Positions 23,741 through 26,293 of a stretch of 64,000 nucleotides of DNA are shown here, in pieces. Under the pieces are notes generated by a model. It searched no databases and was not told where the DNA came from. It worked only from the letters and a program-made list of their open reading frames with translations. The stretch's first letter is position 1. Each line of letters opens with the position of its first letter. Made by a program: the position numbers and the translations under genes. This stretch comes from an uncultured Verrucomicrobiae bacterium (GTDB lineage: Bacteria > Chlamydiota > Chlamydiia > Chlamydiales > Rhabdochlamydiaceae). The stretch lies in NCBI GenBank assembly GCA_963731265.1, contig CAVSUE010000001.1, forward strand, positions 1,280,001 to 1,344,000, given 5' to 3'.

Positions 23741-25210
23741 ATGTTTTTTCACAAAATTCTTCCAATTATATATACCGGAAATGATTCAAAAGTTGGGAAT
23801 TTGGCAAGGCGGTTGCGCAAATTTTTTGTCTGGAGCAAGCGACCATTGTGCAAGCACAAGGCTCGAGATTCAGTCTCGGCATGTTTGCCGAGAAGCGACC
23901 CAACGGCTTGGCTCGCGTCTGATCTCGAGGTGAAGCGCGGCACAAGCTCGATGCAGCCAGCTGCAAAGATGAGGATGTCGACGAAACCAGTGGCCAATTT
24001 TTGGATCACGATGGGTATACTTTGCTCATCTTCTTTCTTACATGCCGACTTGAACACAGACGTTGCCGCGCTCACAGCTGGGCATACCGAATTTGCCTTT
24101 TCCCTTTATCCCACCCTGGATACCGGCGATACTAACCTCGTGTTTTCCCCTTATTCGATCTCCACGTGCCTTTCTATGGTTTATCTGGGCGCAAGGGGAG
24201 AGACCCAATCGCAGATGCAGTCCGGGCTTCACATGAAGGTCGACAGAAAAAATCTCCCCAAAACGGCTTTCGCGCTCAATCAATCTTTGCTGCCCCAAAA
24301 AAACAGCGAAAAGACTTACAAGCTGAATATGGCAAACGCTGTTTGGGTCGACCAGGGAACTTTCCTGTTGACCGACTTCAGATATTCCATCGAACAGCAA
24401 TTCAAAGCAAAACTGGGAACCCTAAATTTTGACGCCGCGCCGGAAAAAGCGCTGGAATCGATCAACGTGTGGGTATCTCAGCAGACTCAAGGCAAAATTC
24501 CACGCCTCCTCAATGGCGACGATATCAACAAAATGACGCGCCTGGTCCTTACGAATGCCGTGTTCTTTCAGGGAAATTGGATTTCTCCTTTCGATCCCAA
24601 GGAAACCTACGAAGCTCCTTTTTATTCTAAACCGGAAGAAAGCGTGCCAACAATGATGATGCACAAGACACATTCTGTTCCGTATTTTGAGAATGAACTT
24701 CTTCAGGCTGTCGCTCTACCCTTTGCCGGAACCTCAAATGAGGGAGGCCAATTGGCGTTTTTTGCTCTACTTCCCAAATCCTCGGATAATTTTTCGGCAA
24801 TGCTCAGCGAGCTTGACGGATCGTTTAGTGAATGGGTTTCCTCTTTGTCCCCAGCACACGTAGAACTCACACTTCCCAAATTCACTTTTTCCAGCCGCTT
24901 CGATTTAAACAAACCTCTGCAGGATTTAGGAATAGACGATGCCTTCGATTCCAATGCGAATTTCACAGGCATAGATGGGATGCGCGATCTCTTTTTAAAC
25001 AAAGTCGTCTCTTTAACCTATTTCGCTTTAGATGAAATTGGAGTGACAGCCGCTGCAGCCACCAGTGGTGGTATGAATGTCACTTTTGTTCCTGAAAAAC
25101 CGCCAATCCCCTTCGATGCGGATCATCCCTTCCTCTTTTTCATCATCGATTTAAAGTCGAAAGAAGTATTATTCATGGGAAAAGTGGTCCAACCTGAAGA
25201 AAATGTATGA
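23741..25210 (+). CDS. Serpin family protease inhibitor; signal peptide interrupted in frame by element R (alternative starts 23726, 23969/23975)
   Basis: NLVFSPYSI, GARGETQSQM, INVWV..QTQGKI, LTNAVFFQGNW..PF, LPKF, hinge EIGVTAAAAT, ADHPFLFFI, LFMGKV. Confidence 0.93.
   Translation: MFFHKILPIIYTGNDSKVGNLARRLRKFFVWSKRPLCKHKARDSVSACLPRSDPTAWLASDLEVKRGTSSMQPAAKMRMSTKPVANFWITMGILCSSSFLHADLNTDVAALTAGHTEFAFSLYPTLDTGDTNLVFSPYSISTCLSMVYLGARGETQSQMQSGLHMKVDRKNLPKTAFALNQSLLPQKNSEKTYKLNMANAVWVDQGTFLLTDFRYSIEQQFKAKLGTLNFDAAPEKALESINVWVSQQTQGKIPRLLNGDDINKMTRLVLTNAVFFQGNWISPFDPKETYEAPFYSKPEESVPTMMMHKTHSVPYFENELLQAVALPFAGTSNEGGQLAFFALLPKSSDNFSAMLSELDGSFSEWVSSLSPAHVELTLPKFTFSSRFDLNKPLQDLGIDDAFDSNANFTGIDGMRDLFLNKVVSLTYFALDEIGVTAAAATSGGMNVTFVPEKPPIPFDADHPFLFFIIDLKSKEVLFMGKVVQPEENV
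23771..24019. mobile_element. Element R copy (249 bp), in frame within serpin
   Basis: TATACCGGAAATGATTCAAAAGTTGG ... CCAATTTTTGGATCACGATGGGTATA. Removal gives MFFHKILPII|LCSSSFLHAD. Confidence 0.85.
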
Positions 25211-25323
25211 ACCCAGCCTTAAGGTCTGGGATTAAGTTGGAGCCGAGCTTCGTACTTGGCTCAACATTGTTTTTGAAAATACCCGGGCCTGAAGGGCCGG
25301 GTTTCCGCCGGAGGACGGATGAA
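25207..25323 (+). mobile_element. Element A copy 3 (uninterrupted, 112 bp plus ATGAA)
   Basis: ATGAA-CCCAGCCTTAAGGTCTGGG...CCCGGGCCTGAAGGGCCGGG-TTTCCGCCGGAGGACGG-ATGAA, between the serpin stop and the PP2C start. Confidence 0.9.
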
Positions 25324-26293
25324 ATTCTTCACCAAGCAGGGACGTTCCAAACAGCCCGATCCCGGAAAAGCAACAGTAGGCGTCGGACCTCCAGCTTTTA
25401 AAATCGAGTTTTTTGGGATCTCTGAAGTCGGCCTTGTCCGTCCCAATAATGAGGATGTATGGTCAGCTGTTCCCGAGAAACAATTCTTTATCGTGGCTGA
25501 TGGAATGGGGGGCCATCAAGCTGGAGAAATCGCCTCTACTTTTGCTGTTGAAAGCATGTGCCATTCGATTCAGTCGGTACCGGAACACAGCGAGGTTGAA
25601 CAAGCCTGCCCACTCATCAGACAAGCCATCGCCCGGGCTAATTCCCAAGTGTATGACGCCTCGCACAGCCAGTCGGATTACGCTGGGATGGGGACAACGC
25701 TTTGCTGTTTTTTAATAGTAGATAAATTTTTAATCTACGGCCATATCGGCGACAGCCGCCTTTATCGCTGCCGAAAACTACAGAGAGGGGGTCAGAATTT
25801 GACTAATGGCAATGTCGACGTTTTAGATTTGCAAGAAGAGCAGGGAATGTCCAAGGACGTCCTCGATGCAGCCAGCTGCAAAAATGAGGATGCCGGGGAA
25901 GCCAGTGACCACCTTTTGAATCACGATGTGTATAAACTCCAGCTGCTCACAGAAGATCATTCTTTGCGCCATAGCATAGTGAATAAGCACGAGCAAAGTT
26001 GCACTTCGGCGCTCCTCATGCGCAATGTGATCACGCGCGCCATAGGTACTCATGCCTCAGTTATGCCCGATATCGGCGTGATCCCCTTACATTCAAAAGA
26101 TATTTATATGCTTTGCAGCGACGGCCTTTCCGATTATGTCGCGGAAGGGACGATCGCGCGCATCCTTTCCTCTTCCCTTTCCTTGGAAGAAATGGGAAGA
26201 AATCTGGTCGAATCCGCGCTAGAAAAGGGAGGAAATGATAATATCACCCTCCTTCTAGTGAGAATTGGCAATGAAAAGAATTTATCTAGATAA
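25319..26293 (+). CDS. PP2C-family Ser/Thr phosphatase (CppA/CT259-like) with a ~52-aa in-frame insertion
   Basis: GLVRPNNED, VADGMGGHQAGEIAS, GMGTT, HIGDSRLY, LTEDHS, RNVITRAIG, LCSDGL, GGNDNIT. Confidence 0.93.
   Translation: MKFFTKQGRSKQPDPGKATVGVGPPAFKIEFFGISEVGLVRPNNEDVWSAVPEKQFFIVADGMGGHQAGEIASTFAVESMCHSIQSVPEHSEVEQACPLIRQAIARANSQVYDASHSQSDYAGMGTTLCCFLIVDKFLIYGHIGDSRLYRCRKLQRGGQNLTNGNVDVLDLQEEQGMSKDVLDAASCKNEDAGEASDHLLNHDVYKLQLLTEDHSLRHSIVNKHEQSCTSALLMRNVITRAIGTHASVMPDIGVIPLHSKDIYMLCSDGLSDYVAEGTIARILSSSLSLEEMGRNLVESALEKGGNDNITLLLVRIGNEKNLSR
25779..25934. mobile_element. Element R copy (~156 bp), in frame within PP2C
   Basis: 3' part CTCGATGCAGCCAGCTGCAAAAATGAGGATG...CTTTTGAATCACGATGTGTATA matches the serpin copy; 5' part AATGGCAATGTCG..AGATTTGC matches the 29143 copy. 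Confidence 0.85.

Follow-up and report, generated by a model that had tools for sequence, protein, structure and literature searches.

The serpin-PP2C junction and element A

The stretch of DNA analysed here (the window) comprises 64,000 nucleotides of an uncultured bacterium of the Rhabdochlamydiaceae (GenBank assembly GCA_963731265.1, contig CAVSUE010000001.1, positions 1,280,001 to 1,344,000). On its plus strand, a serpin open reading frame (ORF; 23726-25210; Pfam Serpin, E 2e-101) is followed by the ORF of a PP2C-family phosphatase (25319-26293; Pfam PP2C), and the two are separated by a short repeat that we call element A. The serpin ORF terminates in GAA AAT GTA TGA, with its TGA (25208-25210) inside an ATGAA pentamer at 25207-25211, and PP2C starts at the ATG of a second ATGAA at 25319-25323. 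A preliminary description of this DNA had placed each signal inside an ATGAA, and re-reading of the coordinates together with the Pfam matches of both ORFs bears this out. It had also counted 112 bp between the pentamers. The number is the distance from one ATGAA to the other, 107 bases lying strictly between them and the rest being one ATGAA; in silico removal of these 112 bases does yield GAAAATGT-ATGAA-ATTC, in which stop and start overlap as ATGA. The intervening stretch is no product of chance, as it has 51 BLAST matches in its own genome.

Element A occupies 25207-25318 (112 nt) and is described on the minus strand, presumably its active 'top' strand. The right end carries an element-encoded motif TTCAT (25207-25211; TTCAC in the family majority), the plus strand of which contains the serpin TGA. 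The right-end hairpin (25212-25230) touches the end motif with a spacer of 0; family members have a 20-nt palindrome here, from which this copy has lost 1 nt and in which it carries a substitution. It is followed by a middle hairpin (25236-25265), which has a variable stem with compensatory changes and a conserved loop, and which is terminator-like on the plus strand; its loop contains GAAG (25248-25251). The left-end hairpin (25282-25301) shows two changes relative to the family majority, and a putative guide, GAAA (25302-25305), sits at its foot. On the plus strand, a Shine-Dalgarno-like (SD-like) GGAGG (25310-25314) lies 4 nt upstream of the PP2C ATG, and the host ATGAA at 25319-25323 (TTCAT on the top strand) is at once the target and the PP2C start codon.

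The element A family

The 51 matches in the 2.34-Mb genome represent 49 copies at 48 sites, two copies being split by another insertion. Of 60 genomes from the same family 19 contained the element, against none of 40 from outside it, and an exact scan of a genome collection with a 24-base motif returned 88 stretches, the best 80 of which all belong to Rhabdochlamydia, Chlamydiae or uncultured Verrucomicrobiae, so that an environmental chlamydia is the most likely host. Rfam gave nothing near its gathering score, and neither a plasmid collection nor viral contigs contained a match to the element. Copies are 112-123 nt long, too short for a transposase gene, and have palindromes close to both ends and no terminal inverted repeats. 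The intervening DNA folds as three hairpins and a small stem on either strand (z scores -4.2 and -3.6). Among 25 diverse copies, 94% of the cells in the three hairpins were paired and 10 of 23 pairs showed two-sided changes, a level reached in none of 500 shuffles, which did not control for sequence relatedness. The focal copy differs from the family majority (113 nt) at 8 of 113 positions; seven of these lie in hairpins and the other is the first base, and none falls in the TGA or the GGAGG.

Rearranged copies also occur. Two perfect 54-base palindromes (L155 and L181) consist of two left ends fused at the left hairpin, a product that inversion between opposite copies would give, and one of them lies within an IS605 right end. 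A 42-nt copy in the nearest relative, G003 (L075; G003:C6), has lost its core between two similar terminal hairpins and resembles terminal-only PATEs.

Insertion without target duplication

Read on the host strand, the flanks of element A are usually not alike. Of the 45 left ends read in the own genome, 34 had GTGAA and 9 had ATGAA as the left 5-mer, and the right 5-mer, which gives the target consensus, was ATGAA in 40 of 47. In relatives, the left 5-mer was GTGAA at 55 of 74 sites, and the right one, scored at 91 sites, was ATGAA at 54, ATAAA at 9, ATCAA at 7, ATGAC at 6 and others at 15. Left and right 5-mers were identical at only 8 of 42 own sites with both ends and at 4 of 74 sites in relatives. 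The perfect ATGAA on both sides that had been described is thus real at the focal junction, but it is a minority state in the family.

Comparison of filled and empty sites defines the boundaries directly. At one locus (L062), G003 is filled and this genome is empty, and the added DNA is exactly the 113 nt from GTGAA to GGACGG, placed before a single ATGAA. This was the one clean pair among 14 filled/empty alignments tried; another was the 42-nt internally deleted copy, and the rest were not used, most distant pairs being too diverged for boundaries. Two copies of a divergent tnpA/tnpB IS605 element (target TTTAT; L001 and L002) provide a further comparison within the genome, as one carries element A at the start of its tnpA and the other has a single ATGAA there. 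A copy inside the unrelated MITE B (a miniature inverted-repeat transposable element, described below) is flanked by CTGAA on the left and ATGTG on the right, and a tandem pair is joined as GGACGG-GTGAA. From the filled and empty sites, the copy in MITE B, the tandem junction and the 5-mer counts it follows that the left RTGAA is part of the element and the right ATGAA is the host target.

These boundaries bear on the possibility that a MITE-like element duplicated a target of 4-5 bases (TGAA or ATGAA), in which case both signals would be host duplicates. Such an origin would suit the ATGAA on both flanks here and at seven other own sites, and the TGAA common to both sides at most own sites. 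However, the family has no terminal inverted repeats, the clean pair shows GTGAA added before an ATGAA that was not duplicated, and 35 of 91 sites in relatives have a right flank other than ATGAA or GTGAA, with the left mostly GTGAA. We therefore reject a duplicating MITE and grant it next to no probability. The preliminary description had left the choice between a TGAA duplication and an IS605-type target with a matching end motif; the former is refuted and the latter upheld.

Probable kinship with IS200/IS605 elements

The left end of element A is organised like that of IS605 elements. On the minus strand the order is TTCAT, 13 nt, GAAA and a hairpin, with a further hairpin and TTCAY at the other end. 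The IS605 elements of this genome and of the relative G002 read TTTAT, 13-14 nt, AAAA and a closely similar hairpin, and a decayed tnpB element of this genome (L086) reads TTCAT, 17 nt, GAAA and a hairpin. Of the 20 bases of the family's left hairpin, 17 agree with the left hairpin of the intact-looking G002 IS605, and the guide occupies the same position in both.

In IS608 of Helicobacter pylori, the target lies 5' of the left end and is retained, the right cleavage motif moves with the element, and 4-base guides stand at the hairpin feet, guide base 1 pairing with position -3 and base 2 with -4, as described in two studies (PMC3201880; PMC5934647). Pairing of guide base 4 with -1 may be added from the pairs AAAG/TTAC and GAAT/TCAA and from PMC8266576. 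By this scheme GAAA fits TTCAT and AAAA fits TTTAT, and the IS605 right end (GAAT/TTCAA) and the tnpB element (AAAG/TTTAC) also fit. The guide GAAA accompanies the target TTCAT in 51 of 87 copies, most others being one base off, and relatives with the guide AAGA have the target TTTAT in 2 of 2 cases. Element A thus shows an arrangement typical of IS200/IS605 elements: 4-5 bases of host target lie on the 5' side of its left end, and the guide at the foot of the left hairpin fits them.

PATEs are gene-less IS605 derivatives, a class defined in Haloquadratum (PMC3119063). Element A resembles them in lacking terminal inverted repeats, in its near-terminal palindromes, which are related to IS605 ends, in the absence of target duplication, in its non-coding length and in its 5-base target (PMC3119063; 10.1101/2023.03.14.532601). 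The latter source reports TTCAT as a target and TTCAC as an end motif among Geobacillus ISGst elements, for which gene-less PATE relatives exist; the target TTCAT is that of ISGst5 and the end motif TTCAC that of ISGst2. Repeats of the REP/BIME type (GTAG family) were considered and rejected: these are defined by a GTAG tetranucleotide before a 20-40 base palindrome (PMC8266576), and the hairpin-foot 4-mers of element A are GAAA and NAAT.

The ancestral junction in relatives

The serpin-PP2C junction was compared in 16 genus relatives with both genes, leaving out G008 (no match) and G004 (contig ends before the serpin). Nine overlap at -4 (RTGA), four have gaps of 0-9 nt, one is a frameshifted assembly and two have long spacers. 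The overlap of G002 uses the same Met-Lys-Phe-Phe start. In G003, the nearest relative, the two genes are spaced by 159 bases, and the spacer is an inverted-repeat MITE flanked by TA, unrelated to element A and with about ten relatives in this genome. If this MITE and one TA are excised, the reconstructed junction reads GAA AAT AT-ATGAAG, the same overlap in the same register. It had been proposed that relatives lacking the element should show an ATGA overlap and not a spaced junction. Formally the spacer of G003 contradicts this expectation, but it represents a second, unrelated insertion, and the overlap at -4 in nine of 16 relatives agrees with the proposal. As judged from these comparisons, the empty site was most likely an ATGA stop/start overlap.

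The inserted element of G003 (MITE B; L012:1335-1500) is about 160 bases long, TA-flanked and bounded by terminal inverted repeats. It lies one base before the same PP2C ATG and also provides the serpin stop (TAA). In this genome, members are found at C1:1641030, 1721873, 1424577 and 1918431, among others. In G004 a decayed piece of element A lies directly 5' of the PP2C start. The junction was probably struck by insertion in three lineages, in two of them without an SD. Note that some G003 contigs are 99-100% identical to this genome and most are 90-95% identical, which hints at mixed binning or recent exchange; the near-identity is seen at L042 relative to C1:1708415-1709332 and in the right flank of L072.

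Sequencing runs and metagenomes were also searched for the junction. In a contig found in two runs, 165 other letters replace 25205-25318; the length is that of the G003 junction, so the contig was not counted as independent. Among the near-identical pieces of a sequencing run, none bridged the junction. A metagenome search with the N-terminal half of PP2C returned only homologues of 36-42% identity, which were uninformative for the junction.

Translation signals at the ends

The element supplies the final base of the last serpin codon and the TGA, which lies within the element-encoded end motif, confirming the proposal that the end adjoining the serpin provides its stop. The last codon specifies valine whether the first base of the element is A or G. 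The other end was proposed to supply the SD of PP2C. On the host strand it reads GGAGG-ACGG-ATG, and the 16S tail of this genome ends CACCTCCTTT. The predicted pairing of GGAGG with this tail is -9.5 kcal/mol, equal to the top 3.6% of 1653 ATG starts, while the serpin's own end pairs at -1.4 kcal/mol. A tract pairing at -5.7 to -9.5 kcal/mol occurs in 10 of 12 divergent variants of relatives caught by pattern; the IS605 and tnpB left ends that were scored all lack one. Position and predicted strength thus favour the proposal, whereas SD-less insertions in G003 and G004 do not, and the SD should be read as a predicted one. On the reading frames, both proteins would stay intact after insertion.

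Proposed mechanism of insertion

We conclude with good confidence that element A is a gene-less mobile element, placed without duplication immediately in front of a host ATGAA and equipped with a TGA of its own and a predicted ribosome-binding site. It is likely a PATE moved as single-stranded DNA by a Y1 TnpA, and it likely split an ancestral ATGA overlap and left both proteins unchanged. In this model, TnpA supplied in trans would bind the two terminal hairpins on the minus strand, the guide GAAA would pick TTCAT, and the element would enter 3' of it. Insertion before ATGAA would place RTGAA where ATGAA had stood. Since the end motif TTCAY resembles the target, the other strand of the element begins with RTGAA, and the upstream stop would be rebuilt in the same frame. 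Rescue of the stop would consequently be a built-in by-product of IS605 end chemistry. The SD, in turn, would be a lineage-specific feature that could replace the lost translational coupling. Selection against intragenic insertions would then leave copies at starts, stops and intergenic sites.

Distribution of copies among gene contexts

Occupancy was determined after removal of the copies in silico, with 1902 genes called by a crude codon model. Overall, 38 of 7994 ATGAA sites were filled. Occupancy was 15/76 at stop/start overlaps, 11/425 at other starts, 2/21 at sites in stops only, 8/1040 in intergenic DNA and 2/6432 inside genes, and reached 26/501 for all starts together. The depletion inside genes is what purifying selection predicts. 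When starts were sorted by distance to the upstream gene, filled sites amounted to 15/76 at -4, 6/60 at tight gaps, 1/48 at 31-150 and 4/169 beyond; the excess at overlaps over isolated starts is seven- to nine-fold (p=1e-5 against the most isolated starts). ATGAA opens 327 of the 1902 called genes and is the commonest start context. The bias is weaker in relatives, where 10 of 74 copies split an apparent overlap and 34 of 91 precede an ORF of at least 100 codons.

The excess at operon junctions was not accounted for by host SD strength, copy age or replication direction. Lock-in through decay of the host SD found no support, host SD strength showing no difference between filled and unfilled overlaps (p=0.23), and neither did a greater age of overlap copies (mean of 3.85 differences against 3.2 and 3.6; p=0.74).

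This order of occupancy, which neutrality alone does not predict, could also arise if element A were a host-domesticated translational or regulatory module, comparable to Neisseria REP2 or to REP/BIME, positively selected at operon-internal junctions for uncoupling, a strong SD or attenuation, with mobility secondary. Retention of the SD-like tract in divergent variants and its absence from IS605 and tnpB left ends would fit such a module, as would the terminator-like middle hairpin, the filling of some sites in more than one species and the repeated insertion at this junction. A selected module does not sit well with the equal age of overlap copies, with an SD no better conserved at overlaps, with host SD strength unrelated to filling, or with the minority of relatives' copies that precede an ORF of that length. 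Furthermore, terminator matches of the middle hairpin on the plus strand were no more frequent than in shuffles (1 found, shuffle mean 0.8). We regard domestication as unlikely.

Evidence against mobilisation by an IS605 transposase

Several observations weigh against element A as a PATE moved in trans and as a carrier of translation signals. Close strains yielded no example of this exact junction without the element. The right end is non-canonical: no spacer parts the end motif from the terminal hairpin, and the foot of that hairpin carries NAAT (82 of 87 copies), a 4-mer with no fit to TTCAC. No autonomous element with these exact ends was found, and the 135 loci around relatives' copies contained no TnpA or TnpB match. 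PF01797 was matched in only four of ten element-bearing relatives, several assemblies being incomplete, and the two tnpA copies present in this genome both seem to be damaged, the HUH motif being affected in one and a stretch of the other being frameshifted. Lagging-strand template bias, which is typical of the IS200/IS605 mechanism and does not define it, was not detected (25:17, p=0.28; 13 vs 13 at starts). The SD at gene starts has no measurable extra conservation (6/115 against 7/75 changed cells), and the same junction carries SD-less insertions, the MITE of G003 and the element A remnant of G004, which has lost its SD. Finally, the crude gene calls detract from the occupancy estimates.

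Part of this evidence would be expected if another HUH enzyme (a REP-associated TnpA or other Y1/Y2 protein) mobilised the element, or if it were an immobile relic, so that its IS605 likeness was ancestral only. The non-canonical right end, the missing cognate autonomous element and the lack of a PF01797 match in six of ten element-bearing relatives, including G012 with eight listed copies of near-identical scores, point in this direction. The left hairpin and guide position shared with the G002 IS605, the covariation of guide and target as in IS608 and the precise polymorphic insertions between close relatives point away from it, and the genomes without TnpA are 63-98% complete assemblies of a kind that often loses repeats. 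We consider this alternative quite improbable and retain mobilisation by an IS605-type TnpA as the likely mode. A different element, with a frame of about 520 codons and a TnpB-like zinc-finger domain, is also present in the genome in about nine near-identical copies (L005, L007-L010 and four other places).

A candidate guide in the middle-hairpin loop

In length and in its AAT foot the right hairpin agrees with the IS605 right end, but the spacer is missing. The element-encoded right motif is TTCAC in 64 and TTCAT in 11 of 87 copies, and in 71 of 87 the middle-hairpin loop contains a fitting GAAG, despite the changing stem. In 102 of 120 parsed ends, the other 18 having other 4-mers or damaged ends, the last base of the loop 4-mer covaries with the last base of the element: GAAG is accompanied by C in 79 copies and T in 11, and GAAA by C in 1 and T in 11. 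The GAAA copies do not amount to 12 independent events: in the tree there are about four GAAA/T lineages and a single GAAA/C copy, and with T at a base rate of 12%, a hand calculation puts the chance of 4/5 at about 1 in 1000. AAAA is combined with TTTAC in one copy, which gives a match at the other paired position, AAAG with TTCAC in three copies, which gives a mismatch, and GAAG with TTCAT in the focal copy, which gives a wobble. The covariation suggests that the loop 4-mer is a displaced right-end guide, and we lean towards this view.

Alternatively, the loop may be kept for its structure, with the covariation a matter of lineage luck; C-GAA-G forms a stable DNA mini-hairpin. A pseudoknot formed in RNA by the middle loop and the 3' end was discarded, since the positions that covary would not be in antiparallel register. 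If the displaced guide is accepted, a wider and more tentative picture can be drawn, which we hold to be possible and slightly doubtful: a single-strand mini-transposon with a re-wired right end, its guide in the loop of a separate hairpin and its ends shaped as a stop codon and a ribosome-binding site, that would colonise operon stop/start overlaps (one in five of the suitable ones here) as a 'translational intron', silent without splicing.

Other repeats and genes of the window

Two further copies of element A in the window, at 456-714 (plus strand, with host sense on the minus strand) and 1271-1535 (minus strand), are inverted relative to each other, and each is broken between the right and middle hairpins by a different repeat of about 150 bases. 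The interrupting repeat also stands alone at 21839-21980 and 36623-36707. A partial copy without the right end (39789-39876, minus strand) precedes the ATGAC start of a 565-codon ORF.

The true serpin start probably lies downstream of 23726. The first approximately 95 codons (23726-24000), which are overlapped by a repeat, are probably untranslated, and the G001 homologue starts near a signal-peptide-like stretch. The PP2C ORF contains an in-frame insert of about 52 codons (25777-25937) that is absent in relatives. It is another repeat, with about ten further matches in the genome and related pieces at 23947-24019 and 29144-29387, and it resembles coding-sequence palindromic inserts. Downstream, two tandem paralogous ORFs of 1018 and 923 codons (27761-30817 and 30945-33716) are 86-92% identical in their 3' parts and have no Pfam match.

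Comparison with known systems

Element A is of the PATE type, set apart by its unusual translational disguise and its non-canonical right end. Unlike PATEs, as far as the available text of their descriptions goes, it has an outward SD at the target, gathers at starts and stop/start overlaps, has a third, middle hairpin and has a right end without a fitting foot guide; start-codon targeting is not mentioned in the accessible part of the Haloquadratum study (PMC3119063). IS608 shares the target kept 5' of the left end, the element-borne end motif and the pairing of a left-foot guide 4-mer with the target, but it encodes TnpA and TnpB and has a 4-base target (PMC3201880, PMC5934647). Its right cleavage site is 10 nt from the hairpin foot, where the guide lies, whereas in element A the cut would be at 5 nt and the fitting 4-mer is in the loop of another hairpin.

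The nearest functional analogues are IStrons and Neisseria REP2. IStrons, which belong to the IS605/IS607 family, are also predicted to insert silently with respect to the host gene (10.1101/2023.11.20.567912), but they splice out of RNA, while element A has no intron and would rebuild the signals for stop and start at the DNA level. The stem-loop repeats Neisseria REP2 and Borrelia IR-A, 120-150 bases long and likewise lacking terminal inverted repeats, place a ribosome-binding site before ORFs (PMC3184786). They carry a promoter and their own ATG; in element A the host ATG is the target, no promoter-like site was found in the element, and the ends are IS605-like. A literature search, with subscription journals, ISfinder/TnCentral and bioRxiv supplements (including the ISGst end alignments) outside its reach, returned, among the listings and the papers cited here, no description of an IS200/IS605 element that is aimed at start codons and supplies an SD, and no account of this chlamydial repeat.

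Implications

If the loop guide is real, it would change the accepted view of where IS200/IS605 guides must lie. The excess at overlaps may stem from targeting or from selection. For the organism, element A illustrates a way in which a mobile element may live in the gene-dense core of a compact genome, by taking the commonest start context as its target and by having ends that read, on the other strand, as a stop and a ribosome-binding site.

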